Shown: in pieces, positions 37,998 to 52,893 of the stretch | How the letters are laid out: the number at the start of each line of letters is the position of its first letter | How positions within the stretch are numbered: the first letter of the stretch is position 1 | Assembly (NCBI GenBank): GCA_021772465.1 | Contig: JAJFLX010000003.1 | Coordinates: 279,551-343,550 of the forward strand | Origin: Chlamydiota bacterium | GTDB taxonomy: Bacteria; Chlamydiota; Chlamydiia; Chlamydiales; JAAKFR01 | Length of the DNA: 64,000 bases | Direction: 5' to 3' | Translations under genes and position numbers: made by a program | The notes under the pieces: generated by a model | Databases searched by the model: none | What the model saw: only the letters and a program-made list of their open reading frames with translations | What the model was told of the DNA's origin: nothing

Positions 37998-38929
37998 AAA
38001 AATTGCTCCAGGTAAAAAATCTTTCTGTGAAATTTTTCTCTGAGGAGGGAGAGATTGAAGCGGTTCGAGGTGTCGACTTTTTCATTTCAAAAGGTGAGCG
38101 CGTCGCTTTGGTGGGAGAGTCGGGCTGTGGGAAGAGCGCAGCGGCCAAAGCTCTTTTAGGGCTATCCTCAGGGGCCATCCATGCCGATTCTATTGAGTTT
38201 GAGGGAGAGGAGCTCACTGGCCTCTCAAAAAATAAGAGACGCAGTATTCGTGGCAGGCAGATTGGTATGATCTTTCAAGACCCTATGACCTCTCTCAATC
38301 CGACGATGCGTGTGGGGTTGCAAATCATGGAAGCGACTGTGCGCCTCCCTGCGCGAGAGAGAGCCCTTGAACTTCTCAAGCAGGTAGGCATCGACTCCCC
38401 TGAGCGCGTCTTCCGCCAGTACCCCCACGAGCTGAGTGGAGGGATGCGCCAGAGAATCCTGATTGCAATGGCGATCGCAGGTGAGCCGAGTCTTTTGATC
38501 GCAGATGAACCTACTACTGCTCTTGATGTCACCATCCAAGCCGAAATTCTCGAGCTGCTCAAGAGAATTGAAATCACGACTTTGCTAATCACCCACGACC
38601 TTGGAGTGGTCGCGGGTCTGTGTGATCGCGTCTTGGTTATGTATGGAGGGAAGATTGTCGAGATGGGCCTTGTTGAACAAATATTTCATGAGCCGGGACA
38701 CCCTTACACTAGGGCCCTGCTCCGGTCGATCCCAAGAATCGATCTTAGGCGCGATCTTCCCCTCGAGGTGATTGAGGGGTATCCCCCTTCTCTCCTCTCC
38801 CCCCCAGCTGGGTGTCCCTTTGCAGCGCGTTGCTCGGAGGCCATGCAGATTTGCGCTCTAAAAGAGCCACCCCTCACCTCTTTCCACTCCACGCAGGAGG
38901 TGACCTGTTGGCTGAGCGAGAAACCGTAG
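37994..38929 (+). CDS. oppD: oligopeptide ABC transporter ATPase OppD
   Basis: Walker A GESGCGKS, signature LSGGMRQRILIAMA, Walker B LLIADEPTTALD, and a C-terminal oligopeptide-type Cys motif (GCPFAARC). Confidence 0.92.
   Translation: MKKLLQVKNLSVKFFSEEGEIEAVRGVDFFISKGERVALVGESGCGKSAAAKALLGLSSGAIHADSIEFEGEELTGLSKNKRRSIRGRQIGMIFQDPMTSLNPTMRVGLQIMEATVRLPARERALELLKQVGIDSPERVFRQYPHELSGGMRQRILIAMAIAGEPSLLIADEPTTALDVTIQAEILELLKRIEITTLLITHDLGVVAGLCDRVLVMYGGKIVEMGLVEQIFHEPGHPYTRALLRSIPRIDLRRDLPLEVIEGYPPSLLSPPAGCPFAARCSEAMQICALKEPPLTSFHSTQEVTCWLSEKP
38895..38900 (+). promoter_or_regulatory. Shine-Dalgarno AGGAGG for oppF
   Basis: AGGAGG lies 7 nt upstream of the in-frame TTG at 38908, inside the 3' end of oppD. 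Confidence 0.6.
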
Positions 38930-39828
38930 TCGAGATCAGAAATGTGAATAAAGATTATGGAGGGGTCGCTGCTCTCAAAGCGATCTCCCTAAACATCTAT
39001 CGAGGGGAGACGCTCGGTCTTGTAGGAGAGAGTGGGTCGGGCAAATCGACGCTAGCGAAGACTCTGATTCAGCTGGTGAGGCCAAGCTCAGGAAGCCTCT
39101 ACTTTCAAGGCAGCGAGATAGGCTCTTTAGAAAAAAAGCCTCTCAAGCAGCTACGCCGCAAGATGCAGATAATTTTTCAAGACCCCTACGCCTCTCTCAA
39201 TCCCCGGATGACTGTCCGTGAAATACTTAAAGAGCCCTTAGAGATCCACCAATTGGAAGGCTCTGCCGAGCAGCTTCTAGCGCAGGTGGGGATGAATGCG
39301 AGTCATTTAAACCGCTTCCCTCATGAATTTAGTGGGGGGCAAAGGCAGCGCATCGCAATTGCTCGCGCGCTTGCGGTTGATCCCGAATTTCTCATCTGTG
39401 ATGAACCTTTTTCAGCCCTAGATGTCTCCATCCAAGCGCAGATTGTCAATCTCCTCCAAAAGGTCCAAAAGAAGCGGAAGCTCACCTATTTGATCATCGC
39501 CCACGACTTAGCGATGATTCGCTACCTCTGTGACCGAGTCGCGGTGATGTATCGAGGGGCCTTAATGGAGCTAGCGCCCAGTGAGGAGCTATATCGAAAT
39601 CCTATGCATCCCTACACTAAGGCCTTGCTTTCAGCAGTCCCTATCCCCGACCCCCACCTCGAGAAGAAGCGTTCGAAGGTTATTTTAGAAAAGAGGCTCC
39701 CTTTGAGCTCTGAGGGGTGCCCTTTTGCGCACCGATGTCCCCTAGCTACTACAATCTGCCATACACACCGTCCGGAGATGGAGCTCCAACACCAGCGCCA
39801 CGTGGCGTGTCACCATCTTCGCGCATAG
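38908..39828 (+). CDS. oppF: oligopeptide ABC transporter ATPase OppF
   Basis: Walker A GESGSGKST, signature FSGGQRQRIAIARAL, Walker B FLICDEPFSALD, C-terminal GCPFAHRCP...HVACH. The ORF track begins at 38812, 118 nt inside oppD. TTG 38908 with a perfect Shine-Dalgarno gives a normal-length N-terminus (LAERETVVEIRNV...). Confidence 0.9.
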   Translation: MAERETVVEIRNVNKDYGGVAALKAISLNIYRGETLGLVGESGSGKSTLAKTLIQLVRPSSGSLYFQGSEIGSLEKKPLKQLRRKMQIIFQDPYASLNPRMTVREILKEPLEIHQLEGSAEQLLAQVGMNASHLNRFPHEFSGGQRQRIAIARALAVDPEFLICDEPFSALDVSIQAQIVNLLQKVQKKRKLTYLIIAHDLAMIRYLCDRVAVMYRGALMELAPSEELYRNPMHPYTKALLSAVPIPDPHLEKKRSKVILEKRLPLSSEGCPFAHRCPLATTICHTHRPEMELQHQRHVACHHLRA

Positions 39829-42800
39829 GTCCTTTTCCCTTGTCCCTACGAGCTTCTCCCCGCTTCTCTTTTGCCGAGGTGCGTAGATCAGTAAGGAAGT
39901 CATGAGACTCAGGGCGTATTTCGTTCAATAGCTTTTTGTATTGAGCAGACCCTAAGCCCTTGAGCCATTCGGCGAGCTTCTTTTTTTCAGCAGCAGAGAA
40001 TTTAAGGGGATTTTGCTTGCAATGCTTATGAAGAAGCTCAAGTTTTTTTCTCGCGAGCTTGAGTAGTAGTTTTGGATCCCCGTCATTAATACGCCCGAGG
40101 AGAGCTGCCGATTGCTTCGTTTTGAACCCTGTATCTAAGTCCTGGTAGAATCGCTCATAGGTGCCTTCTCTTTTCCATTTTGGCACGAGCGTATTCCACA
40201 GATAGTCTTCTTCAACTGTAGAAAACCGAGGCATATCAATTAAAAGCTTGACGAGGATCGATTTCTCAATAAACCCTTCACTTTTGGAATCAGGGGTCGC
40301 ATTGCCCCGATCTACACAAAGGATTTCATGTTCGTTAGTAAGAGAATAAAGACCCAATTGGTAATTAGTATTTGAACCATCTTTCCCCCGTTCAGTCGCT
40401 AAGAATGAACGTAGACTCTCTGAGTATTCATCTGGGGTGACTATTAACACAGTAGGAGGATTTTCTGGGCTTTTGGCTACGAGGATCCTGAAAGCGGGCA
40501 CACCCGTGACACTTCGACGCAGCTCGTGTGCACGCTCTGAAATATAGAGATCTGTGAGGATCTTGCGTGACGTGGGGCCTATGATATCAGATACACATTG
40601 ATAATGATCGCTAACCATAGATCTATAACGGTATCTTTCTCTTTCAAATCTTCCCATCGTTACGCTCTCAGCAATAAATGCTCTGTAGTCGACAAGACCG
40701 GTCTCTCGAAAATACGAAGTGGGTTGGATTGACGATTCAACTTCCTGCTCTTGCTCCTGTTCCTGCTCTTGCTCTTGCTGTAGCTGCACTTGTTGCTCAG
40801 AGTGAGCTCCTTCATTTTGATGCAGAGGGATTTTCTCAGCGAGATGATTTTTGAAAAAATCCCGATGCGCTTCTTCTGCAAGTTTTGCTTTCTCTGCTTC
40901 AACCACTTTTTTTGCCGCCGTGAGTGCGCTTAGTAGCCCAGCATATTTAGTTTTAATTAAGGGGTAGTTTCCAACTGCTTTCTGCGCCAAATTTTTAATC
41001 AACCCCCAAAAGCCACTGCCTGTATTTGCGTCTTGGGGAGGATTGTAACGACTGTTGAACTCTGCCATATTCTTTTCAAGCTGAGCTGTAAGCTTGACAA
41101 TCATCTCAAGTTGTTTGTTATACTGCGCCTCAAGAAACGCAAGTGTGTCGACATAGGTGGGAGGCGCATAATCTTGGAGCCATTGAATCTCATTTGAAAT
41201 GATGTGAAGATCTCGAATAGCCGGGAAGAGAACTTTCCCCTCAAATTCCACATAAGGCGCTATATCATTTTTATCGTTTGGAAGGGGCACGTATACTCTC
41301 GTGATTCTGTCTAGCTCTAAATCGAGAGGCGTTCGGATTTGCTTGAGCATTGCCTTGGTGTGGTAGAGCTGCTCGGCATCTAAAGTGTTTATGATACAGT
41401 ATTTTAGAGCATGCACAATGAGGAGGTCTTTTGTGGGCTCTAGTTTTAAGCACCGTCTGATTTGGCTCTCGGTTTTCTTATCGAAAGCAATTTTTACTTT
41501 TTGGCCGAGGCCCAGCTGGCGCATCCGGCCGAGCATCTGAGCTACATCATCAATTTTGTTACCGACACCAAAGAGTGCACACCCCTCGATCTCTTCTCCT
41601 ACAGGGACGTGAAAATGCACGCCACGAGTATCTGAAGGGCCGTAGAGAAATAGAGCCCCTTTCTCAATCGCGGAAGCTTCGTAATCCATAACTTCCCCGC
41701 CCCGGCTCATCATTTTCTTCTCGTGGTGGCGCGTACGGTAGATGATCTGCCGCTCCACGCCATTCGCTTGAAGGTAAGCAGCGAGCCTTTCGCAGTCATT
41801 GCCAAGCACCTCATAGTCGTAGTTCATAAGCGCTTGAGTTCCACTTCTAGCTTTTTCAAGCATAAAAGCAAGAGGGTCTGTGAAGCTTGTTTCACACTTA
41901 TCTTCGACATCCATCAAAAGAAGAAGTTCTCCGAGCACATCGTCAGGACGCTTTTCACCAGGTCTTGCGAGATTGAGCGAGAAGAGGTCTCCCGTACCTG
42001 AAGCAATGCGCGCATCTCCCCCTTTTGCAAAACGAGGTCCGATCACGCAGTCTTGAGTGTTGAAGACAATCTGCTCGGCGTAAACTTTGATGTAGTTTGT
42101 ATAGAGCATTAGATGTCTCAAATACACGAGTCGATGCAAACTAAGGCCTTCATCTCCAATAAATGCTTCGTATAGGGTCTCGTACTTTCCAGAAGTAGGT
42201 TTGTCAGGGAAACGCCGGTTGCTTTTGAAACAATCCATGATTTCAGCTTTCCATTCACTCCAAGTCATTTCGGATAGCTGAGGAGAGCAGTGCTCATCGC
42301 CTGGAAGATCGTCATAATTTTTGGCAAATAGCTCCTGATTGAGAGCATTCGATGCTCCTAAATAGTGGAGGATGTGGTGAAAAATGTTTTCAGGCTCATT
42401 CCCATAAAGGACATTCTTTTTTTCGATTCCATCCATATAAGGAACAACTGTGACCCCATCGCGCCTGCAAATACCACGATCGAGTTTAGGATTGATCCCC
42501 GCAACTGAGGGAAGGGCAAGAGTTAAAGAGATTCGCAAAGCAATCAAATAGTGGAACTTCTGCAGCTCCACTTCACCAGCTCCGTTTGGATAGGGAGGAA
42601 GACCCTTTGGAAGGCTCGTTCGGTGTCCTGTCAAATATTCGACAAGCTCCGCTTTATTAATCTGTTCCCACTCATCTTTTTTCCAACCCACAACTGTCCA
42701 CCAGAAATCATCTTCAACTAATGTCTTTGCTACTGTTTGAAGCTCTTGCTCTAGATTTTCAACTGAGCGGAGGTCATTGCCCACCATTTTTTCATAGAGG

Positions 42801-45800
42801 GCTTTATGTTTCTCGCAGATATGACGTACCATTTTTTCCGCCATCGTAAAGCGAGTGGAGTCGACTGTTCGGTGCTCTCCCGTTGCAAAGTTGTATTCAA
42901 AATTGATGTCAAAATTGGTGTCTTCATCAATTAGATAGGAAACGTTCTCTGTTTTGAAAAAACTTTCAATCTTACGAAGCATTTGCAGCTGCACATAATA
43001 TACCTTCAAACGCCCTTGAGCAGACGGGTCGAGCTGGTTAAAATGGCGACCCTCAAGCTCGCAGCAAAGGATGTCTTGTAGTTCAATGCGTTTATTTCTA
43101 AGGCCTGCCAAGTCCTTTGGAGCTGTAAGCACAGCTCGCTTCTCAGACTTTAGTTTATTGAGAGTTCGGAGAATACGCTCAAGATGCTCTTCAATTTCCT
43201 TATTTGTTGGGTCCTCCTTTTTCAATCCGAAGTTGATGTCAAAACCGAAGAGATAGCTCCGTTTTCCAAGCGATTCGTGCAACTGCGTGACGAGCTCTTC
43301 ATTGGTGACCATAACGGGCTGTTTCCCTCGTTGGAGAAGAAGCTCTACTGCTTTTGGAAAAATAAAGTCAGACTTACCAGCCCCCATAATGAGACGAACA
43401 AATCTGTCGGGCTCTTTCGTCTCATCCTTAAGGTCCGCTAGCATCCTCTCAAGGGCGTCATTGGCAAAATCTCTTGAAATCCACCCTCTTCGAACCTCCG
43501 TTACGAGATACCGTCTGGTAAAGAGTTGGTTTTTTAAGCATTGGTTCTTCTCGTCTGCGTATCTCTTCCAGTTGCCCCCTTCAGAGAGGTAGCGTTGAAG
43601 CTCAAATGAGGCCAAGTCCCAATCGCGTGATTTTCCTGACTTTAGAAATTCTTCGATCCGATCAGCCTTCCCTTTACCAGAGCCTTTCGTCTCCTTATGC
43701 ACCTCGTGCATAATCCGCTGGAGCTTCCAACACTGCGCCTTAGCCTTTTCATACTGTTGAAGCTGAGTGGTGCAGAGGATAAAATTTGTTATCATAGCGG
43801 CATACGGTTGCTCGCTTCTATTGTCTTCAAGACCTAGAATGGACCAATCTTGGTAGAGATCAAAGACAGCGTTGAGGATTTGATCCTCGCCCACTCTTTC
43901 CCCATCAGCAAAAAGATCGAGAAGCCCCAGCTCCTTGGCGTGGTATTGTGTAGCCTCTAGCAGCTCAACTTTCATGCGATGCTGCTCCTTTTTGAGAGCC
44001 TCGATCCGCGTCGCAAGATCTTGATAGAGTGTTCTAAGCTTAGAAGAATCTAGCGTCGATTCCGTTTTTTTAACAAGCTTATCTTTTGCCAGCTCAATTC
44101 CACTGCAAATCTCCTGGAATCGAGCAGCTTTGCGAGGATTGGTCACTATAGTCGAGTCAAAATAGTTTTTAGCTTGCTCTTCGCGCACCGTCCATTTACC
44201 AGTCTGTTGATTGATAAAATATGTATTTATGTTTAAGATATCTCGCTTTTCAAGATGAATTTCTGGGTAAGGAACGTCATTTTTTCTTTGCAATGGGACT
44301 TCGGAAGGAAGAGGTACGGCACATCTCTCTTCAGCAGGGCCTGCACGCTCTTGTGCAGGTTCAGGGGTCAGCATTTGTTTTAAGAGGCCTTGTAAATTTC
44401 CAAACCACTCTTCAATCCCTTCAACTGCTGGATTTGTCCCTTCAGTAGCCGCATCGAGCGTGTCTGGGAGTATCTCATTTAAAAAATCTTGAAGATAGGG
44501 AATGAGTAGGGAGTCGCTCTGAGCAAGAAAGTCGGTCATTAGGCCCCGAGGCACTCGCCTACCCCCGATTTCGTCGTATGAAGTGTAGTGGGAGATGTAA
44601 AGCTTATACACTGCGTAGAGTTTGTAAAATCCCTGTTTGTTGATCCCCAGTATTGAGGGGTTGCGAAGTTGCTCATCCCAAAGTTTTTTCTGCTTTGTAT
44701 GGAGCTCTCCAAAGGGAGGGAGCCGATTTCCAGAAATTTTGACATTTTTCACAAGAAGCGCAATATCTCGTACCCGAGTTTGCCACTTTGGCCCTTGCTC
44801 CTCTTTAAACTTATGGATGAGCAAGAGCAAATGCCTTGCCGTATCCACTAAAGACTCTGTACCCTCCGGAAGAGGTCTTCGAAGGAAGGCTAGATCTTCA
44901 GAAGAGAGCTCTTCTTCAATAATCCACTCCCAATAAGACCAAAAATTTCCTACAACAGTTTCGATTTTCGGATAGTGTCCGAATCGCTGGTGATGCTCCT
45001 TTACAGGCGCTGGGTAGTAGCGTTTTGGAAGAGCCAAAATCAGTTCGTGCAGCTGGTCTTTTGAAAACTTACTTTGAAGCTCAAAAGGTTTTGGAGGCGT
45101 TTTAAGTTTCTGAAGTTTTTCTCGGATCTGAGAGATCACATTCTGACCTCCCGTCAAATTGAACGAAGTATAGAGGCCGAGGAGCGAGGAGATCCGCTGA
45201 TTTTCTGGAATTCGAATAGAGATACGAGTCATCTCATCATCTGTCAGAATTAAACTATGTTCATGCAATTGATTGCGAAAGTGACCTCGTTGCTTTTGAT
45301 GTTGAGAGAACAGAGTTGAAAATACGAAAATGAGAATAGATTTCTCCTTTTCATTATAAGGTAGTTCGCCATGTTGGCTTTCAAAATGGTGTTCCAATGA
45401 AAAAATTGAAACGAGGAACTTCGTCCAATAAGCAGTTTCTAACGGAGTGAGAGAAGTGGGGTCGGAAATAAAATTAAGAGCTTTTGCTAAGAATTGTTGA
45501 ATTCCAATGCCTCGGATCATCTCTTTTAGCTCTTTAAAATCGATTGCTTCAGAGTGCCCTTTCTCAACAAATTGAGTGAGGTATCGGTTTGCTGCCCCCC
45601 ACTCTTGGCGAGTCGCTGCAAGGTAGCTGAGATAGAGAAATCCTCGGTGTGTCGACTGCTCTCCAGAGGCATCAATGTCAACTAAAGTGGGTGTCGGTTT
45701 CGCGATGTGGTTGATCAGAGTGCCAAAAAATTGGACGTTTTCATCCGATCCTTCCATCAACTTCGTTGCAATTTCCTCTGTTCCAACGAATATTTTACCA

Positions 45801-48800
45801 ATAGCCGCTAACTGTTTTATAAGTGCTATCGATTTCGTCATCCCAGCGAGCATGTTATTATCAACTGACTCCAGTAATGGCAAGATGGAAGAGAAGTCGT
45901 GCAGAGCATCTCCTCCCAAATCGAGCAGATCCTGGATAGTTTTGATGTAGTGAAGAGGTTTTCCCTTCTGAGCCACATTTGTTGCAAAGTAGGGAAAAAC
46001 CCATAAACGGAGAGCACCCGTTTCGCTATTTCGAAGCGCAAGGGTATTTTCGCGCCAGTTGGCTCCAAACTGCGCTTCGATTTGCTTTGTACCTGAAAGC
46101 GCGAGTTTCCAGTTTGCATTCCCCGCTACATGCCACCCCTCATCGGTCGTATGTTTCAAGATAAGTCGTTTCTTAGAACTAGGATCTTCAGGAAATCTCA
46201 CTTCATCAACATGGGTTCCATCAGACGAGAGCATTAAAAGCTCTTGGTTGGAACAGCATTGAAAGAGATGAACCCCTTTTTTCTTCATCTGGGCGCAAAC
46301 GGTTTTCTGCTCGCTCCCCACACCTAGAGTCGCCTTTCGGATAGATTTTGAATTCAAATGAAGCTCAATAGGGTCGTTTTCTAGGTCCCGACCTCTCCTA
46401 GCTACAAGAGCGCGGCTAGAATCTAGTTTTCCCTTGGAATCAATAGGGACCCATATTCCTTTCTCTGTTATCTGCTGTTCGACAAAGGTATTTCGATGAG
46501 TCGAGAAAAGAGGGGTGAGCAAAATATCTGCTTTCCGCCTTTTCAGAGTTACGACTTGAAAGCGGTACTCCGCATCTCCACGCTTTTGGATCACATCGAG
46601 TTTATTACCTGAGGTTCTAAAAGTTATGGAAACGCCACAGGGGTCAGTCCATAAGTATTCAACGACGTTGTTATCGCGCACCTGTTCTTTAACCCACATC
46701 CTGGCCGGCTTTCCAAAAAGGAAGGTGAAATTAGGATCACTTTTAAAGCGTTCAGGAAATTCCTTGAGGCCGCCTGATTCTATTTGTGTGGTGCACCCCA
46801 TGCCGCTGACTAAATCCAAAACGATTTCGTCTGGGCCTTGAAGGGTGTAGCAGTACGGGTTATGAGGCTGCTCTTTCCATTTTCCCTCAGAGCCACTCAA
46901 GCGCTTGAGAAGCTCATTGCGAAATTCTTCATCAGTTTCTAGTTCCCCGCGAAGCCTGGGGAGTAAATCTCGCTTTGTAAATGCGATATTTTCCTCTTGC
47001 AGCCCTGAATGGCCTATTGGGAAGGGTGATTTCTGAAGGATGTAAAGAGCAGAGATGATCGCTCTCCATTCAGCCAAATTCGCTCCATCCTTAGGAGGGT
47101 ATCGGTTGAAATGGCTTAAGAGATGGGTGGCAAAAATTTTCTGATCGCGCTTCTCTTCATTGTCTCTAAAGTCAGATAAGAAGTCGCTTGCGTTGTACTT
47201 ATAAAGAGCATCCGAAATAGCGGGTGCACAAACATAGATCAGAAGCCGAGAGAGATCGCCCGATCTGGTTAGTCGATAAGATAAAGCAAGCACATTGTCT
47301 TCATCTGAAATTTTTTGAGCTAGTTCGTGAGCAAATTCCTTGTAAAGAGTCGTCGTCTCTCCCCTTTCCATTTCTCTTCTAAGAGGCGAATCTTCTTCAA
47401 GTTTTTCACGAATCCACTTCTCGATCACATCCCTTGAAGCGGGGCAGATCTTCAAAATGGAGGTAGTCACTTCACCGATGATAGTCGAGCGGAGCTGATT
47501 TGCCATGCTGCGGATCCTCTCAGAGATATCCATCAAAAAGAGAAGAGTAGCTCTCTCTTGACGCCTTGTCAGACGATCAATAATCTCTTCGAGCGCAGCT
47601 TTGTTATCGATGAAGAGGTGGGGGTGTGTGAGAAGTTGCTTGCGCAAAAGACCCGGCGAGAAAAATCTCTGGTAGAAAGTATCCCTCACGTGCTCAATTT
47701 TCAAGGCCGTAGGGCATTCATAGAGGTATTCCCAAAGACTTGAGATAGATGTCACATCGAGTTCTGGAACGAACTCAAATATTTTGTCCCCCCCCTCTCT
47801 ATTTGCAACGGACGTTTGTCGCAAACAATACTCCTCTGCCGGGCTTAGCGCAGGGAACTCTGGTTTTTCTCCTACTCTCGTCGCAAACTGCCTCTCCTCG
47901 TCATTTTTAAGAGCATCTTTTGCAATCACTAAAGGCATGTTCCCGATGTCATAGGGCCTGTGATCGATTGTGGGAGGAGTGCCTATTTTCTGTGTGTAGA
48001 TTCGAAAGGGTCCCAACTCATTTTTCTTATCCGTCAGAGTGTAACAACAGTGCGATTCCCTGTTATCCAAGCACCATGGGGTCAAATAGAGGCGATCTAG
48101 CTCTCCGAAACGCTTTTGAAGTTCTTTGAGTTTTGGAGGGTCATTATTCACTAGAACAAATTGCGCAACTTTTCCCTTCCTATCCCATCCAGCGAAACGG
48201 TGCATCATGCCCGTTGGATCTTCAAGAGCATCACGCATCGCAAGCTGGCGACGCAATAAGCCGATCTCTTTCGGCCCCAGGTACTCATAGGCATCTTTAA
48301 GGTTGAAAACACCACGTTGATGAAAGAGGACATTGTTAGCCAGCCTAGTGCTAGGTGTAGCCTCGTTTAATGCACTCAATTTTACCCGCTCAGGGAATGT
48401 GGGTTCTGGGAATTGAGTTCCGTCGCCAAGTTGATCGTATCCGATTAAGAAAGAGTGTTTATTTTCTGAAATAAAATGATTAAAAGCTACGCCGCGAGAC
48501 AGGTGTTCTCTGAACTCATTGTAAGCGACAATACAGCTTTGATATCTTGCCTGAGATTGAGGGTCATTGCCATAAGGTAGGCTGCGATCGCCCGAGAGGA
48601 GCCAATGATTTTGTTTGCAGGTATAAGTCCAAATAAAGGTATTGAGAATTTTGGGGTCTATGTAACTTATTTCACTTTTAGGAATCTCTAAGATTTTGAA
48701 AAATCTGCCTACCATGGCGACAAAGCGACGATTACTTCTACTTCTCCCACCTAAATCTGACTGATAATTAATAGTTCCTAAAAAATTATCAGGATTAAAA

Positions 48801-51385
48801 TTAACTGCTCGAATCTTTTTCAATAGATTATCTTGCTGCTGGCTTGTCACAATCTCCTGGTCGAGCACCTTTTGCTTCTCCTCCGGAGGGGGGCTTTGCT
48901 CTGGAACTTCGGGTCTAGGACCTTGAGCTCTTTCAGGTAAGAGTCTCCATACCATTAAGGCTCTAGTTGCTTTGTTATGATCTGAATCTTGCTTTGCCCA
49001 TTCACGATTCAATCTTTGGGTCGTCTGCTTAGCAACCTCATCTTTACGCAATTCAATGAAAGCCTCTCTTTTCGCCTGAAGCTTTTGAACTATTTCAGCA
49101 TTGTTTAAGTTTGCCTTCAAACGCTCATTAAATCGACGTTGCATCAAGGGCACTTTTTGCTGGAAGAGGCGGAGCTGGATGAGGGGAAGGACCGAATGGA
49201 ACTCAAGTATTTCATGGGGAGAAAGGGGGAAGCTGCCAGAATGAAGAGCTGCTTCAAAAAAACGCTCTCCAAGATCGCCCAATGCGCTACCCCATTTTTC
49301 AATTGCCTCGACATCAACTACACTCTCCCAAAAATCGTCGGTTGGAGGAGGCACAGCCTTCAAAAGGCTCGCTAGAAACATTTTTGCTGCTAGAGGATCC
49401 TTCTGCTCAACAATATACGTTTCAGCTACCTCAAGAAGCTCAGAGAGAGCTTCAAGCCTAAAGTCCGAGCTCAAGGCATCGATCTTTTCTTGATGCTGAG
49501 GGAGAACGCGGGACATGGGGGCATCATTCAAAGTCAACTGAGAGGCGAGAGCGCTTGCCTCAATAGAGTTGGTGAGTTCAGCTTTGAATCGGTTCGCGGA
49601 ACTCGACAGCCTCGCTAGATCTGCAGCCTCCTTCTTCTCACGGAGTTTATGTACGTCAAACTTTTGTTGTAATTGAGCTGAAAATAAGTCAAGAATCACC
49701 TTCGCGGCATCGATACCGAGCTCGTTTTTTAGTTCTTGATGCAGGTCCTGCGCGCTATCTTGAATCCGCTCTAAGACGCGTATCTGCTCGCTATTTGAAA
49801 GCTGAGACTCATAGCGATCATATGTTTCAACCAGATGATTGAGGTAGACTTGATAGAACCGATACCGCGCATACGCTCGATCTTCCACTTGATTTTCAGA
49901 AGTAATAAAGGCGCCATTCTCGACTCCTAGTTGCTTAATAACGCCGTAGAGGGTGGTGACTGGATCGCGAGTAGGCTCTCGCTTGACGATAGGATTACCG
50001 ACTTTTTCAGCCTCCCAACTACGAAAAAGAGCTTCAAGAGAGTGATCTTTTTGGCGTTGAGGACGATCTTGAGCCTCTTTTATGTCTTTAGGACGAGAGA
50101 AGGATTGGATTGCGAGAAGTTCTCGAATTCTCTTAGGCCCAAATTCTTTTAACTTAACAGTTGAGCAGGTATCAATCAGCCCCGATTCTTTTTCCTTGGT
50201 CGAAAAACAGACATCGGTGATTTCAAACGTCTCTTCATCGGTTTTTTTGATGACTAAAAAATGAGGGAGATACTCTTTCCCTTCACCTATAGCGAAAGGG
50301 AGCAAAACGGGAGCGAAACCCTCTACCGCCTTATTTAACTTAGAGACCGCTGATTTTATCCGCTTGAGATCACCCGACTCAAGAGCTTGCCGTGTGATGT
50401 GCGCTAAGTGACTTCCCTGCGATAAGATGCGTGAGAGTCGCTCTGCTGAATTGCCCGACTCGTACTTGTTTTCATTTGAACGCACATCCTTAGAGCGCAC
50501 TTTTTTCAGTAAAGGATGGCTTCGAGGCAAAATTATTTTGTCACCCAAAACAAATCGGTAGATGTGGTGTTTTGTATCCTTCGATATTTTTCTGGCAAAG
50601 GAAGCTAAAGTGGGGTCGTCCACATCGAGATAGAGCTCTATCTCCTCCTGAATTAAAATATGAACCTCATTTCCTATGATCTTGCAAGGTTGCAAAGAAA
50701 CTGGCTGGTTTTCCTTGTCGCCAGAGGGGGCATTCTTAATGAGCTCAGCTGATTTTGTATACCCTATCAAGCTCGACTCATTAGGGGTAAGGTCTTGAAA
50801 ATATGTTGCCATAAAGTCGATGTGATCCAAAACCATCTGGTGGTTGAATTCACCCACACAACTTGGCTGCAAGGGCGCCATAAGAGAAGCAAACTTCGAC
50901 GCATCCCCACCCTTTGTCATAAGCCGATACAAGGAACTAAAGGGCTTTTTAAGCAACGCGCCAAACGCATATAGAGCGCCCATCACCGACCCTCGGGTCG
51001 ATTTTTCCGCAAAATGGCGAATCGTCAGATCGTGAACTCTTGCTGCAGTCGCGACTGCACCCTTGGCGGGCAGGTCCACCTCTTTTTTTGTGACAGGTTG
51101 TTGCGAGTTCAAATCGTAATAACGATAAGAGACCGCGTTTCTGTCATATTCAGTGATTTCGACAACTAATTTTTGGTTAAGATCTCTCGAGGTTTTAACC
51201 GGATCCTGCGCATCTTTAAATATAGTCTCTAAACAGGTGTTCCGCTCTCTCTCATTCCACTTAAAACTTCTTCGGGCAAAAAAAACGACCCCTTGCGCCC
51301 TCGGCCCTACCGGAATATATTCAAAAGCTTCGCCCGATCCCACTAAATCAGTGAGCTCTTTACCCGATTTATTAACCTTATTCAC
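39749..51385 (-). CDS. giant hypothetical protein (3,878 aa) with an internal P-loop/SF2-like NTPase core (DUF3638/DUF3645-like)
   Basis: Single uninterrupted 11,637-nt ORF; ORFs in the other frames are <=101 aa. Walker A-like RLIMGAGKSDFIFP (MGAGKS = nt 43370-43387, aa 2667-2672). LIDED (nt 42920-42934, aa 2818-2822). Arginine-rich QMLGRMRQLG (nt 41510-41539, aa 3283-3292). QQ(EQ)5E linker at aa 3536-3548. No TM or signal peptide seen. GTG start without Shine-Dalgarno (start uncertain). Confidence 0.8.
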   Translation of the reverse strand: MNKVNKSGKELTDLVGSGEAFEYIPVGPRAQGVVFFARRSFKWNERERNTCLETIFKDAQDPVKTSRDLNQKLVVEITEYDRNAVSYRYYDLNSQQPVTKKEVDLPAKGAVATAARVHDLTIRHFAEKSTRGSVMGALYAFGALLKKPFSSLYRLMTKGGDASKFASLMAPLQPSCVGEFNHQMVLDHIDFMATYFQDLTPNESSLIGYTKSAELIKNAPSGDKENQPVSLQPCKIIGNEVHILIQEEIELYLDVDDPTLASFARKISKDTKHHIYRFVLGDKIILPRSHPLLKKVRSKDVRSNENKYESGNSAERLSRILSQGSHLAHITRQALESGDLKRIKSAVSKLNKAVEGFAPVLLPFAIGEGKEYLPHFLVIKKTDEETFEITDVCFSTKEKESGLIDTCSTVKLKEFGPKRIRELLAIQSFSRPKDIKEAQDRPQRQKDHSLEALFRSWEAEKVGNPIVKREPTRDPVTTLYGVIKQLGVENGAFITSENQVEDRAYARYRFYQVYLNHLVETYDRYESQLSNSEQIRVLERIQDSAQDLHQELKNELGIDAAKVILDLFSAQLQQKFDVHKLREKKEAADLARLSSSANRFKAELTNSIEASALASQLTLNDAPMSRVLPQHQEKIDALSSDFRLEALSELLEVAETYIVEQKDPLAAKMFLASLLKAVPPPTDDFWESVVDVEAIEKWGSALGDLGERFFEAALHSGSFPLSPHEILEFHSVLPLIQLRLFQQKVPLMQRRFNERLKANLNNAEIVQKLQAKREAFIELRKDEVAKQTTQRLNREWAKQDSDHNKATRALMVWRLLPERAQGPRPEVPEQSPPPEEKQKVLDQEIVTSQQQDNLLKKIRAVNFNPDNFLGTINYQSDLGGRSRSNRRFVAMVGRFFKILEIPKSEISYIDPKILNTFIWTYTCKQNHWLLSGDRSLPYGNDPQSQARYQSCIVAYNEFREHLSRGVAFNHFISENKHSFLIGYDQLGDGTQFPEPTFPERVKLSALNEATPSTRLANNVLFHQRGVFNLKDAYEYLGPKEIGLLRRQLAMRDALEDPTGMMHRFAGWDRKGKVAQFVLVNNDPPKLKELQKRFGELDRLYLTPWCLDNRESHCCYTLTDKKNELGPFRIYTQKIGTPPTIDHRPYDIGNMPLVIAKDALKNDEERQFATRVGEKPEFPALSPAEEYCLRQTSVANREGGDKIFEFVPELDVTSISSLWEYLYECPTALKIEHVRDTFYQRFFSPGLLRKQLLTHPHLFIDNKAALEEIIDRLTRRQERATLLFLMDISERIRSMANQLRSTIIGEVTTSILKICPASRDVIEKWIREKLEEDSPLRREMERGETTTLYKEFAHELAQKISDEDNVLALSYRLTRSGDLSRLLIYVCAPAISDALYKYNASDFLSDFRDNEEKRDQKIFATHLLSHFNRYPPKDGANLAEWRAIISALYILQKSPFPIGHSGLQEENIAFTKRDLLPRLRGELETDEEFRNELLKRLSGSEGKWKEQPHNPYCYTLQGPDEIVLDLVSGMGCTTQIESGGLKEFPERFKSDPNFTFLFGKPARMWVKEQVRDNNVVEYLWTDPCGVSITFRTSGNKLDVIQKRGDAEYRFQVVTLKRRKADILLTPLFSTHRNTFVEQQITEKGIWVPIDSKGKLDSSRALVARRGRDLENDPIELHLNSKSIRKATLGVGSEQKTVCAQMKKKGVHLFQCCSNQELLMLSSDGTHVDEVRFPEDPSSKKRLILKHTTDEGWHVAGNANWKLALSGTKQIEAQFGANWRENTLALRNSETGALRLWVFPYFATNVAQKGKPLHYIKTIQDLLDLGGDALHDFSSILPLLESVDNNMLAGMTKSIALIKQLAAIGKIFVGTEEIATKLMEGSDENVQFFGTLINHIAKPTPTLVDIDASGEQSTHRGFLYLSYLAATRQEWGAANRYLTQFVEKGHSEAIDFKELKEMIRGIGIQQFLAKALNFISDPTSLTPLETAYWTKFLVSIFSLEHHFESQHGELPYNEKEKSILIFVFSTLFSQHQKQRGHFRNQLHEHSLILTDDEMTRISIRIPENQRISSLLGLYTSFNLTGGQNVISQIREKLQKLKTPPKPFELQSKFSKDQLHELILALPKRYYPAPVKEHHQRFGHYPKIETVVGNFWSYWEWIIEEELSSEDLAFLRRPLPEGTESLVDTARHLLLLIHKFKEEQGPKWQTRVRDIALLVKNVKISGNRLPPFGELHTKQKKLWDEQLRNPSILGINKQGFYKLYAVYKLYISHYTSYDEIGGRRVPRGLMTDFLAQSDSLLIPYLQDFLNEILPDTLDAATEGTNPAVEGIEEWFGNLQGLLKQMLTPEPAQERAGPAEERCAVPLPSEVPLQRKNDVPYPEIHLEKRDILNINTYFINQQTGKWTVREEQAKNYFDSTIVTNPRKAARFQEICSGIELAKDKLVKKTESTLDSSKLRTLYQDLATRIEALKKEQHRMKVELLEATQYHAKELGLLDLFADGERVGEDQILNAVFDLYQDWSILGLEDNRSEQPYAAMITNFILCTTQLQQYEKAKAQCWKLQRIMHEVHKETKGSGKGKADRIEEFLKSGKSRDWDLASFELQRYLSEGGNWKRYADEKNQCLKNQLFTRRYLVTEVRRGWISRDFANDALERMLADLKDETKEPDRFVRLIMGAGKSDFIFPKAVELLLQRGKQPVMVTNEELVTQLHESLGKRSYLFGFDINFGLKKEDPTNKEIEEHLERILRTLNKLKSEKRAVLTAPKDLAGLRNKRIELQDILCCELEGRHFNQLDPSAQGRLKVYYVQLQMLRKIESFFKTENVSYLIDEDTNFDINFEYNFATGEHRTVDSTRFTMAEKMVRHICEKHKALYEKMVGNDLRSVENLEQELQTVAKTLVEDDFWWTVVGWKKDEWEQINKAELVEYLTGHRTSLPKGLPPYPNGAGEVELQKFHYLIALRISLTLALPSVAGINPKLDRGICRRDGVTVVPYMDGIEKKNVLYGNEPENIFHHILHYLGASNALNQELFAKNYDDLPGDEHCSPQLSEMTWSEWKAEIMDCFKSNRRFPDKPTSGKYETLYEAFIGDEGLSLHRLVYLRHLMLYTNYIKVYAEQIVFNTQDCVIGPRFAKGGDARIASGTGDLFSLNLARPGEKRPDDVLGELLLLMDVEDKCETSFTDPLAFMLEKARSGTQALMNYDYEVLGNDCERLAAYLQANGVERQIIYRTRHHEKKMMSRGGEVMDYEASAIEKGALFLYGPSDTRGVHFHVPVGEEIEGCALFGVGNKIDDVAQMLGRMRQLGLGQKVKIAFDKKTESQIRRCLKLEPTKDLLIVHALKYCIINTLDAEQLYHTKAMLKQIRTPLDLELDRITRVYVPLPNDKNDIAPYVEFEGKVLFPAIRDLHIISNEIQWLQDYAPPTYVDTLAFLEAQYNKQLEMIVKLTAQLEKNMAEFNSRYNPPQDANTGSGFWGLIKNLAQKAVGNYPLIKTKYAGLLSALTAAKKVVEAEKAKLAEEAHRDFFKNHLAEKIPLHQNEGAHSEQQVQLQQEQEQEQEQEQEVESSIQPTSYFRETGLVDYRAFIAESVTMGRFERERYRYRSMVSDHYQCVSDIIGPTSRKILTDLYISERAHELRRSVTGVPAFRILVAKSPENPPTVLIVTPDEYSESLRSFLATERGKDGSNTNYQLGLYSLTNEHEILCVDRGNATPDSKSEGFIEKSILVKLLIDMPRFSTVEEDYLWNTLVPKWKREGTYERFYQDLDTGFKTKQSAALLGRINDGDPKLLLKLARKKLELLHKHCKQNPLKFSAAEKKKLAEWLKGLGSAQYKKLLNEIRPESHDFLTDLRTSAKEKRGEARRDKGKGPMREDGDTPRGAGVGAPSPDGVYGRL

Positions 51386-51474
51386 GTAATGCCTATAGAT
51401 AATGAAATTTCAAATATAATAACCTAAAAAGATTAAGATTACATAAATTTTTAACGGGAAGAGAGGCTGATTTG

Positions 51475-52053
51475 TTAGGTGCACCTAATCTCTACAATTT
51501 CGAGAGTTTTGATCGGAACATCTTGATGCCCTTTTTTCGTGCTCGTCTCTACGGCTTTAATGGCTTCTACAACATCCATTCCCGAGGTGACCTCCCCAAA
51601 AACGCAGTAGCCATACCCGCTTGGGGTGGCAGAGCGATAATCAAGAAAAGTATTGTCGGCGACATTGATAAAAAACTGCGCCGTCGCTGAATGAATATCT
51701 GAGGTTCGGGCCATAGCTAGAGTCCCTCTCTTATTCGAAAGTTTATTTGAAGCTTCATTTTCGATGGGCGACCGTGTGGGCTTCTCTCTCATTTCAGCGT
51801 CCATGCCACCCCCTTGAATCATGAAACCATCAATCACTCGATGAAAAATAGTTTTATCGTAGTGTTTAGTATCGACATACTCAAGGAAGTTTGCCACAGT
51901 TTTAGGAGCTTTATCCGCGTAGAGTTTGACGTGGATATCCCCCATTGTGGTCTTGATGGTGACTTCAGGTTCATTCATAGGTTTTTCCTTTGGATTTGGG
52001 TTTTGACAGGCGAAAAGTAAGGGGATGCATACAACTAACAACCACGACCTCAT
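51475..52053 (-). CDS. cyclophilin-type peptidyl-prolyl cis-trans isomerase, lipoprotein
   Basis: 192 aa with lipobox LLFAC. Cyclophilin blocks [14 protein letters not shown] and GYCVFGEV. Confidence 0.9.
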
Positions 52054-52143
52054 TGACCTCTCCTTTGAAAAAATTCTCGGATGAGATGTTACCTAAAAAA
52101 GGGTTTTTGGCAAAGCTCGTTTCCTGGTATAAGCAAGGTAGGT

Positions 52144-52893
52144 ATGGATTTAGCGCATATTTTAGAAGAACTCGCTTACGATATGGGAGGAGACCTTCCA
52201 AGAGAAGCTATCGAGGCTGCAATTGCCAAGCGGAATGCTATTACACCGCATTTGCTCGCTATTTTGAGCGATGCGACCCAGCGCATTGACGAGGTGATTG
52301 AAGACGACAACTACCAAGGACACATCTACGCGATGTATCTATTAGCGCAGTTCCGAGAGAAAGAGGCCTACCCCCTTTTAATTGAGCTGTTCTCTTTTCC
52401 TTGCGAGATTCCTCACGCGATAGCCGGGGATGTGCTCACTGAGGATTTGAGTCGCATATTGGCTAGTACATGCGACGGAGAGACTCGCCTCTTAAAGCAA
52501 CTAGTTGAAAACCCCTCAGCGAATGAATACGTTCGAGCCGCTTGCCAAGAGGCGTTGGTACTGCTTGTTGGATGTGGTTTTTTGAAAAGAGAGGCGGTTA
52601 TCGCCTATTTCCATGAGCTTCTCACATCGAAACTCGAAAAAGTCCCCTCATTTGCTTGGGACTACCTCATTGCTTGTTGCTGCATTCTCTATCCCGATGA
52701 GCTCCACCGTCCTATACTTCAAGCTTTTGAAGATGAACTTATTAACGAGAATTTTATTTCTCTTCAAGATGTAGCTGCAACCCTTACTCTTGATAAAACC
52801 ACTCACCTCTACCAGCTCTACCACGACGCGGAATTAATAGACGATACCATCGTTGAGATGGAAAAATGGGTGGGCGACTACTCGGTCCAATGA
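52144..52893 (+). CDS. DUF1186-like hypothetical protein
   Basis: The ORF track starts at 52081. ATG 52144 is preceded by AAGGTAGG and gives MDLAHILEEL.... The helical repeat-like sequence (LPREAIEAAIAKRNAITPHLL; YAMYLLAQFREKEAYPLL) matches my recollection of DUF1186. Confidence 0.55.
   Translation: MDLAHILEELAYDMGGDLPREAIEAAIAKRNAITPHLLAILSDATQRIDEVIEDDNYQGHIYAMYLLAQFREKEAYPLLIELFSFPCEIPHAIAGDVLTEDLSRILASTCDGETRLLKQLVENPSANEYVRAACQEALVLLVGCGFLKREAVIAYFHELLTSKLEKVPSFAWDYLIACCCILYPDELHRPILQAFEDELINENFISLQDVAATLTLDKTTHLYQLYHDAELIDDTIVEMEKWVGDYSVQ

Follow-up and report, generated by a model that had tools for sequence, protein, structure and literature searches.

The 64,000-nucleotide stretch of a Chlamydiota bacterium genome analyzed here (contig JAJFLX010000003.1 of assembly GCA_021772465.1, positions 279,551 to 343,550; hereafter the window) contains a giant open reading frame (ORF; 39749..51385, minus strand) that starts with GTG and encodes, without interruption, a protein of 3,878 residues. 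The question raised by this locus is what kind of catalytic machine such a protein carries and how it came to be in a bacterium. An initial annotation, made from the sequence alone, had proposed that the interval 41510-43387 encodes a P-loop ATPase core resembling the DUF3638/DUF3645 module of giant eukaryotic proteins. From the analysis presented below, this stretch very probably encodes the catalytic part of an ATPase of the superfamily 2 (SF2) type that belongs, as a divergent member, to the DUF3638 family; its homology, the conservation of its motifs and its predicted fold are observed, and it is from these that we infer the activity itself. The locus is a divergent new member of an already known, uncharacterized family, of which some chlamydial relatives are already labelled DUF3638 in the databases.

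Motifs of the module and its relation to DUF3638

The module occupies residues ~2600-3360 of the giant protein (41306..43588, minus strand, as are all features within the ORF given below) and is its most conserved part, as seen from a profile over 79 full-length members. The interval 41510-43387 corresponds exactly to M2667 to G3292. The three motifs on which the initial annotation was based are found in the ORF at the positions it had given: the P-loop or motif I, MGAGKSD (residues 2667-2673, 43367..43387), in which K2671 is the predicted phosphate-binding lysine; motif II, the Walker B or DExD motif, IDEDT (residues 2819-2823, 42917..42931); and GRMRQLG (residues 3286-3292, 41510-41530), which lies inside motif VI, QMLGRMRQLGLG (residues 3283-3294, 41504..41539), with R3287 and R3289 as predicted arginine fingers. 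Two helicase-type motifs can be added to those named at that time, SGT (3129-3131) and RG (3254-3255). The first is part of a motif III-like SGTG (residues 3129-3132, 41990..42001), aligned with GFSGT of the eukaryotic members, and the second of a motif V-like DTRGVH (residues 3252-3257, 41615..41632) located in RecA-like lobe 2. Motifs I, II, III, V and VI of SF2 proteins occur in this order, as GxGK[ST] (2668-2672), DED (2820-2822), SGT, RG and QxxxRxR (3283-3289).

An alignment of 93 full-length homologous modules with the window module shows 100% conservation of G2670, K2671, D2820, E2821, G3255, Q3283, R3287 and R3289, and near-invariance of G2668 (99%), D2822 (97%), G3130 (96%), T3131 (98%) and R3254 (96%). 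K2671, the D2820/E2821 pair and the arginine block, to which the initial annotation had attached particular weight, are invariant in the homologues. The P-loop itself departs from the canonical Walker A motif, with L2665 where the first G/A would stand, and nowhere in the giant protein does the pattern [AG]xxxxGK[ST] occur; the P-loop corresponds to a family-specific variant, x-M-G-x-G-K-[ST]. This departure, together with a Pfam score under threshold (see below), could be taken to mean that the module is an inactive, degenerate P-loop relic serving as a structural scaffold only. We regard this as highly improbable, since the catalytic residues are invariant or nearly so in 93 or more homologues that share less than 50% identity with one another, since the deviant MGxGK[ST] also occurs in canonical eukaryotic members, and since it is precisely the module that forms the most conserved region of the protein. 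In the alignment with two such eukaryotic members (P0130 and P0131), IMGAGKS and IDEDT of the window protein stand opposite NMGEGKT/S and LDESDE/VDESDE (LLDESDE, IVDESDE), respectively.

DUF3638 (PF12340) is the sole Pfam family reported for the whole protein, with a score of 22.6 bits (E=7.6e-5) for the complete sequence, rising to 26.5 bits (E=4.6e-6) when the module is scanned by itself. The matched stretch (residues 2653-2861, 42803..43429, against profile positions 35-222 of 225) contains the first RecA-like lobe, including motif I and motif II. The pair of Pfam domains expected from the initial annotation is thus recovered in part: DUF3638 is found, at E=4.6e-6 and below the 31-bit cut-off, whereas DUF3645 and the helicase models are not. 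DUF3645 (PF12359, 33 residues) has no match on the window protein at E<=10, and it is likewise missing among the matches listed for the scanned relatives of the window clade (13 relatives, E<=0.01), as well as among the 25 families listed in a second scan of relatives. NCBIfam, PADLOC and PDB sequence searches with the window protein were empty, and a word-indexed (lossy) homologue search with the module alone returned no match, the window protein itself included.

When residues 2561-3361 were used as query against 1.84 billion representative proteins, exhaustive scanning with HMMER yielded 126 matches with E<=1e-3, of which 89 have E<=1e-10 and 40 have E<=1e-30. With few exceptions, these are proteins of 3,000-6,000 residues, aligned end to end with the query and carrying the module at a similar place, and the homologues over the whole length of the giant protein are proteins of this size from uncultured Chlamydiales. 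The best match, the nearest among 15 billion proteins, is only 46% identical in the module, for which reason the lineage of the source genome appears to be absent from the searched collections. DUF3638 is matched by 11 of 13 diverse full-length relatives (best E=4.7e-24) and, in a second set, by 13 of 19 (best E=2.3e-27); among the 13 there are also one weak ResIII match (5.4e-4) and one weak DEAD match (3.1e-3). One relative bears the NCBI label 'DUF3638 domain-containing protein, partial [Chlamydiota bacterium]'.

The relation to the eukaryotic proteins emerges from profile comparisons. A profile built from the bacterial modules and searched against a 5.8-billion-protein database retrieves a protein of the green alga Tetrabaena socialis with PF12340 and PF12359 (E=4e-20) and one of the fungus Periconia digitata with DUF6606, PF12340 and PF12359, named 'ubiquitinyl hydrolase 1' (E=5e-14); a further profile search adds members from Pleodorina, Gonium, Volvox, Edaphochlamys, Dunaliella, Parachlorella, Mesostigma, Didymella and Pythium. 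When the hidden Markov model (HMM) of 93 module sequences is compared with the Tetrabaena protein P0130, the alignment consists of one stretch only (HMM positions 106-796), which spans the P-loop, the DExD motif, the DUF3645 stretch, GFSGT, RCRGADL and QAAGRLRLLGRGQ, the latter standing opposite motif VI of the window protein. With hhalign, the module and the algal, fungal and oomycete DUF3638+DUF3645 proteins are aligned at probabilities of 99.8-99.9% (E ~1e-30, 1.8e-30) over ~640 columns. These hhalign probabilities and the single-stretch Tetrabaena alignment bear out the proposed homology to the DUF3638/DUF3645 module of ~3,000-residue eukaryotic proteins, with the motifs in the same order. 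On the other hand, the late Q..GR.RQLG block, which had been assigned to DUF3645, is helicase motif VI. The DUF3645 model matches P0130 at 2276-2305 and P0131 at 2384-2416, and these columns align with residues 2979-3010 of the window protein, TVVPYMDGIEKKNVLYGNEPENIFHHILHYLG (42356..42451). This block, equivalent to DUF3645 by its aligned position, is conserved in the 93 modules at P2982 (99%), E2997 (76%) and Y3008 (87%).

The eukaryotic DUF3638/DUF3645 giants (Tetrabaena socialis TSOC_000242/000243, Gonium, Volvox, Dunaliella, Mesostigma, Didymella, Periconia, Pythium) carry the UniRef name 'ubiquitinyl hydrolase 1', comprise ~3,000 residues with the module near residue 2000-2700, and show two weak collinear islands upstream. 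The window protein shares with them a collinear module of ~700 residues with MGxGK[ST], DExD, VP[YF]...E[FY], [FS]SGT, RGxD and QxxGRxRxLGxGQ. It differs from them in lacking the DUF6606 N-terminal domain, in its sub-threshold DUF3638 match and in belonging to a separate clade (100/100). In the literature, DUF3638 is listed among the Pfam domains of large microsporidian gene families (PMC5423893). Our literature search gave no description of the fold, the activity or bacterial members of DUF3638, the mentions that were read being passing domain labels, and no paper was found in the search for PF12340, PF12359 and DUF6606.

Predicted fold and comparison with SecA and other SF2 motors

An AlphaFold2 model of residues 2561-3361, computed from a 19-sequence alignment, has a mean predicted local distance difference test score (pLDDT) of 76.3 and a predicted template modelling score (pTM) of 0.66, and displays alternating beta and alpha elements around the motifs. 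In this model, two tandem RecA-like lobes are present, the arrangement by which SF2 proteins are recognized, and the SF2-like character put forward in the initial annotation is sustained by the five conserved motifs together with the predicted fold. When the model is compared with the PDB using Foldseek, the top five matches are all SecA structures (best match 1tf5, E=4.8e-5, probability 1.0, ~860 aligned columns covering the whole module). They are followed by ISW1, Hef, SWR1, UvrB, XPD and SMARCAD1, with E>=1.6e-2, and the informative matches (E<0.05) are predominantly SF2 proteins. Because the best likeness to a solved structure is to SecA, and then to ISW1, Hef, SWR1 and UvrB, the module is read as an SF2 motor in which motif II is followed by a large insertion. 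This II-to-III insertion of ~260 residues (residues ~2840-3100, 42086..42868) is mostly helical with beta-hairpins in the secondary structure of the model.

Comparison with the predicted structures of the BFVD leads back to DUF3638. Nine giant-virus proteins are matched at E<=2.4e-9, seven of which are named DUF3638 domain-containing or ubiquitinyl hydrolase 1: A0A3G5A476 (Harvfovirus), A0A3G5AAN1 (Hyperionvirus), A0A7D3V923 (Fadolivirus) and four Hokovirus paralogues (A0A1V0SH35, A0A1V0SFG7, A0A1V0SG42 and A0A1V0SG94). The matches to these seven, with predicted structures on both sides, have E-values of 3.3e-19 to 3.7e-13 and template modelling (TM) scores of 0.50-0.59 over ~760-900 columns, and unnamed Yasminevirus and Megaviridae proteins are matched at E ~1e-9. 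The Klosneuvirinae/Mimiviridae DUF3638 proteins are thus the best structural matches to the module, but share only 11-15% sequence identity with it; compared as predicted structures, they independently confirm its DUF3638 membership.

The resemblance to SecA (B. subtilis 1tf5, 1tf2 and 3jv2, and the E. coli protein) concerns the order of the SF2 motifs, the large insertion right after motif II and the long helix that comes after motif VI. The motifs of E. coli SecA are located at residues 105 (GEGKT), 209 (DEVD), 391 (TGTA), 508 (GRGTD) and 570 (QLRGRSGR), as compared with 2668, 2820, 3129, 3253 and 3283 in the window protein, and their local wording is similar (GEGKT, DEVDSIL, GMTGTA, AGRGTDI, QLRGRSGRQGD). 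The distance from motif II to motif III is 309 residues in the window module vs. 182 in SecA, and the two insertions are unrelated in sequence. The place of the window insertion is occupied in SecA by the preprotein cross-linking domain, to which it may be equivalent, and the long helix that follows lobe 2 (residues 3323-3360, 41306..41419; helix 763-800 of the model) is positioned like the start of the SecA helical scaffold and may be its counterpart. Unlike SecA, the window protein has no SecA_DEAD, SecA_PP_bind or SecA_SW Pfam match and no link to the Sec machinery, and its module lies inside a protein of 3,878 residues. As hhalign probabilities are below 5% for all SF2 proteins tested and no SecA Pfam match is obtained, the module is SecA-like in design, not a member of the SecA family.

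The same comparison bears on another reading, according to which the module would be a nucleic-acid-dependent SF2 translocase or helicase that tracks along or remodels host or bacterial DNA or RNA, like SNF2/ISWI, Hef, UvrB or XPD. All PDB matches after SecA are indeed nucleic-acid motors (ISW1, Hef, SWR1, UvrB, XPD, SMARCAD1), a few relatives have the weak ResIII and DEAD matches mentioned above, and motifs I, II, III, V and VI occur throughout the SF2 enzymes. However, the matches to nucleic-acid motors are at least 300 times weaker than those to SecA (E>=1.6e-2 vs. 4.8e-5), with TM scores of 0.14-0.25, and no nucleic-acid-binding domain was detected by Pfam across the 3,878 residues. Moreover, the insertion of SecA follows motif II and that of SNF2 enzymes lies between the lobes, and the window module has the arrangement of SecA. 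A helicase of this kind is therefore rather unlikely, though it deserves to be kept in mind. As the insertion comes directly after motif II, in the manner of SecA, and no nucleic-acid-binding domain was detected, a polypeptide or protein complex is weakly preferred as the substrate; by analogy, a SecA-like role in handling or remodelling polypeptides, over the unwinding of DNA or RNA, may be advanced as a possible, if doubtful, proposal.

In a motor of SecA-like design, lobe 1 would comprise the P-loop, the DExD motif, the insertion and the SGT motif, and lobe 2 the RG motif and the arginine fingers of motif VI, followed by the long helix. ATP would be bound in the cleft between the lobes, where K2671 and S2672 would hold the phosphates and Mg, D2820/E2821 would activate water and R3287/R3289 would sense the gamma-phosphate; S3129-T3131 would couple the two lobes. 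In SecA and other SF2 motors, the resulting lobe motion grips or pushes a polymer substrate. In the window protein, hydrolysis might likewise open and close the lobes and thereby move the insertion domain, with its DUF3645-equivalent block, against the C-terminal helix, gripping or moving a polymer.

Several observations weigh against reading the module as a DUF3638-type SF2 motor of SecA-like design. Both DUF3638 scores of the window protein lie below the Pfam gathering score of 31 bits, and the Pfam models DUF3645, DEAD, ResIII, Helicase_C, SNF2 and SecA_DEAD have no match on it. In the structural model, the pLDDT falls below 50 in the strand just before the P-loop and in the loop around motif III, and the preference for SecA rests on the Foldseek E-values, the TM scores being low (0.32-0.39) for this flexible multi-domain model. 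Finally, hhalign comparisons of the module profile with the single E. coli sequences of SecA, RapA, UvrB, HsdR, DeaD and RecQ all remain below 5% and do not discriminate between them; with SecA, three collinear local matches are obtained, at an insignificant probability of <=3%.

SecA-like SF2 ATPases have been described in other very large proteins of host-associated or conflict-related bacteria. Of two comparative-genomics papers, one mentions effectors with 'SecA-like helicase-related domains' in the amoeba symbiont Amoebophilus asiaticus (PMC3482391), and the other a SecA-like ATPase in giant actinobacterial toxins (PMC8195603). The likeness to the window protein is one of description.

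Distribution and origin of the family

The family spans environmental chlamydiae, giant viruses, algae, fungi and oomycetes. Giants of uncultured Chlamydiales/Chlamydiota (MCP5469520.1, MGM0440519.1 named 'DUF3638 domain-containing protein', and loci on OY969414.1, CAWHVD010000001.1 and CAZPPS010000001.1) have the same size and the same motif set as the window protein. Homology to them extends over the full length, with an identity of 29-32% overall (full-length alignment to 10 relatives) and of 40-46% in the module, and the gene neighbourhood is not conserved. Three loci from metagenome-assembled genomes (MAGs) of Chlamydiales show 36-40% identity across nearly the entire length.

A neighbour-joining tree was computed from 137 modules (731 columns, 100 bootstraps); it is unrooted and distance-based, with the eukaryotes thinly sampled. 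The tree splits, with 100/100 support, into a 106-sequence clade that includes the window protein and a 31-sequence clade that includes all named eukaryotes. The 106 members are representative clusters at 50% identity, and all members of the window clade that can be placed are chlamydial, among them the three Chlamydiales MAG loci and MCP5469520.1, likewise from a Chlamydiales MAG. The eukaryote-containing clade is also bacterial in part: it holds one Chlamydiota MAG protein, one gene on a 2.26-Mb contig with compact bacterial genes, and two more genes in plainly bacterial neighbourhoods, one of them adjoining rplM-rpsI. The named eukaryotes group, with 65% support, with two unnamed PF12340+PF12359 proteins. 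The description of the family as overwhelmingly eukaryotic, given in the initial annotation, does not agree with a chlamydial radiation of 106 clusters, bacteria within the eukaryote-containing clade and members in giant viruses.

These data also bear on the origin of the gene, for which the initial annotation had left the choice between an inter-domain transfer and an ancient shared family. A recent capture of a host DUF3638/DUF3645 gene by the bacterium would be conceivable, as chlamydiae, being obligate intracellular bacteria, have hosts in common with those algae, fungi, oomycetes and giant viruses in which the family occurs, and as the G+C content of the giant ORF (0.454) is slightly lower than that of the remaining window (0.477). 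This difference is small, however, and the nearest relatives of the window protein, just 46% identical to it, are Chlamydiales proteins homologous over the full length, whereas similarity to the eukaryotic proteins outside the module is marginal or absent. The clade of 106 clusters is separated at 100/100 from that of the named eukaryotes, and the latter clade includes genes in plainly bacterial contexts. Because of this split and of the bacteria also found inside the eukaryote-containing clade, a recent transfer from eukaryote to bacterium is very unlikely. Of the two origins considered, that of a bacterial copy by recent transfer is thus disfavoured and that of an ancient shared family fits; the tree speaks against a simple recent copy of a eukaryotic gene. 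The window protein belongs to an old, paralogue-rich chlamydial branch, and the data would accord with a family of long standing in chlamydiae that has found its way into eukaryotes and giant viruses as well.

Paralogues are seen side by side on the chlamydial contig ena:ERZ25039491:contig_23251, where two of them (1-2574, 3,328 residues; 10001-19735, 3,244 residues) lie within 10 kb; the first (1-2574) has a faint ankyrin-repeat match. The gene order on this contig, recR-bamA-ompH-lpxD, is that of Chlamydia (CT240-CT243). Paralogue expansion in some chlamydiae is suggested by the data. In the eukaryote-containing clade, P0151 (4,520 residues) has a thioredoxin-like domain and a zf-RanBP finger, the Volvox protein P0146 has a pyridine-nucleotide disulfide oxidoreductase domain, and the Pleodorina proteins P0133/P0134 are named 'thioredoxin-disulfide reductase'. 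There are hints in this clade of redox or ubiquitin-binding accessories.

The remainder of the giant protein, its locus and its possible role

Upstream of the ATPase module, AlphaFold2 modelling of residues 1400-2560 (pLDDT 74.5) predicts a beta-rich, propeller-like domain (residues ~1503-1814, 45944..46879) and an alpha-solenoid or tetratricopeptide repeat-like scaffold (residues ~1817-2559, 43709..45937) that leads into the module; Foldseek gives weak matches of scaffold type only (IFT-A, nucleoporins, Elp1). The motor would thus be placed behind a propeller-like and alpha-solenoid scaffold in a soluble protein of 3,878 residues. No internal repeats are found in the giant protein, only one marginal hydrophobic window is present, and no signal-peptide-like or transmembrane segment is predicted over its 3,878 residues. 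A Gln/Glu-rich low-complexity tract, QQVQLQQEQEQEQEQEQE (residues 3531-3548, 40742..40795), is located in the C-terminal region, and the family consensus is also Q-rich at this place. A profile search of the PDB gave no matches other than poly-Q artefacts due to this tract, and CIDE-N, Cyclophilin-like and HALZ Pfam matches on segments of the protein were set aside as sub-threshold noise.

No second catalytic domain was found by Pfam scans of five segments, by the model of residues 1400-2560 or by the conservation analysis. In the 79 full-length members, in which the module is the conservation maximum of the giant protein, residues conserved at >=80% outside of it are, with few exceptions, P, G, W, F, L or A, and neither a Cys nor a His attains this level there. 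As the module is both the most conserved part and the bearer of the only conserved catalytic signature, its designation in the initial annotation as the engine of the protein is a reasonable one. On the other hand, the idea that the whole giant architecture is shared with eukaryotes was rejected. A long hhalign alignment (window residues 1217-3339 vs. Tetrabaena 922-2645) reaches 99.6%, but it is carried by the module, and segment-wise alignment leaves just two short islands, one of which is irreproducible. The island at residues ~1501-1559 is collinear with the eukaryotic profile at a probability of 64-73%, whereas the second (conserved island at residues 1901-1950, match at 1911-1957) scores 60% when one alignment is used and only 1% when the alignment of 79 sequences is used. 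For the N-terminal ~1,200 and the C-terminal ~530 residues, similarity to the eukaryotic proteins is not detectable in hhalign comparisons of segments.

The name 'ubiquitinyl hydrolase 1', under which UniRef lists eukaryotic and viral homologues, raises the possibility that these proteins are deubiquitinases in which the P-loop module is an accessory. Besides the source names of the homologues, the zf-RanBP finger in one relative (P0151) could be put forward for this view, such fingers binding ubiquitin in other proteins. It may also be counted in its favour that Chlamydia-like bacteria encode many deubiquitinase effectors (PMC9741609, PMC10643670), although the paper on the VTD deubiquitinases deals with Waddlia and Simkania effectors and not with the DUF3638 family (PMC9741609). 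However, neither Pfam nor NCBIfam identifies a peptidase or deubiquitinase family in the window protein, the eukaryotic members checked show DUF6606, DUF3638 and DUF3645 only, and no Cys or His is conserved at >=80% outside the module in the 79 full-length members. The names seem to result from automatic annotation, and the literature search gave no description of such an activity. There is accordingly little to recommend a deubiquitinase, and we hold the ATPase module to be the catalytic part of the protein.

The neighbours of the giant ORF in the window are housekeeping genes: an Opp-type ATP-binding cassette (ABC) transporter, tsaD, 6-phosphogluconolactonase, glucose-6-phosphate dehydrogenase (G6PD), CTP synthase, aconitase, a cyclophilin lipoprotein and gyrB-gyrA-tmk-holB, the latter in the order found in Chlamydia (CT187-CT191). 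The gene for the cyclophilin-type peptidyl-prolyl isomerase (51475-52053, minus strand), with a lipoprotein-like N-terminus, lies on the same strand 89 bp upstream of the giant ORF (gap 51386-51474). No terminator-like site is present in this gap, and the sole promoter-like site is upstream of the cyclophilin gene; the promoter and terminator scans at the locus gave results at chance level. Co-transcription of the cyclophilin gene with the giant ORF is possible. A DUF1186 protein (52081-52893, plus strand, E=3e-91) is encoded divergently from this pair. At the other end, a convergent ORF for an oppF-like ABC ATPase (38812..39828, plus strand) overlaps the 3' end of the giant ORF (stop at 39749, minus strand) by 80 bp (39749-39828); alternatively, the oppF-like ORF may have been called too far at the 3' end. 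Two large ORFs of 1,102 residues (5354-8662, minus strand) and 1,244 residues (17249-20983, plus strand) have no Pfam match at E<=1e-5 and may encode lineage-specific proteins. Scans of the whole 64-kb window for tRNA, tmRNA and Rfam families gave no family at threshold.

As to the role of the giant protein, a host-directed one appears the most plausible, because it has no signal peptide or membrane segments, because the family is restricted to obligate intracellular bacteria, eukaryotes and viruses, because paralogues have expanded, and because the domains upstream of the module are of scaffold type. We tentatively predict, with less than even confidence, that the protein is a host-directed factor of an environmental chlamydia, delivered to the host. 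Speaking against such a role, neither a type III secretion signal in the giant protein nor a chaperone gene at the locus was found, the size of the protein is unusual for a secreted effector, and there is no conserved neighbourhood, the pairing with the cyclophilin and opp genes not being kept beside the homologues.

A bolder proposal, which is speculative and on balance improbable, would be that the DUF3638 proteins constitute a so far undescribed class of giant motors of SecA-like type acting on polypeptides, which originated in Chlamydiota, diversified there and were later passed to eukaryotes and to the giant viruses of protists. The window protein would then belong to an arsenal, rich in paralogues, of machines delivered to the host in order to unfold, extract or translocate its proteins, with a possible tie to ubiquitin or proteostasis, and the giants named 'ubiquitinyl hydrolase 1' in eukaryotes would descend from them by domestication.

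Recognition of the DUF3638 core as a complete SF2 motor of SecA-like design provides a concrete catalytic hypothesis for the family, centred on K2671, E2821 and R3287/R3289. The occurrence of the family in chlamydiae, giant viruses and several eukaryotic lineages follows a pattern of gene exchange typical of organisms that meet inside protists. Since bacterial diversity surrounds the eukaryotic sequences, the description of this family as one found in eukaryotes may have its history backwards. For chlamydial biology, this very large and paralogue-rich family represents a candidate host-interaction machine.

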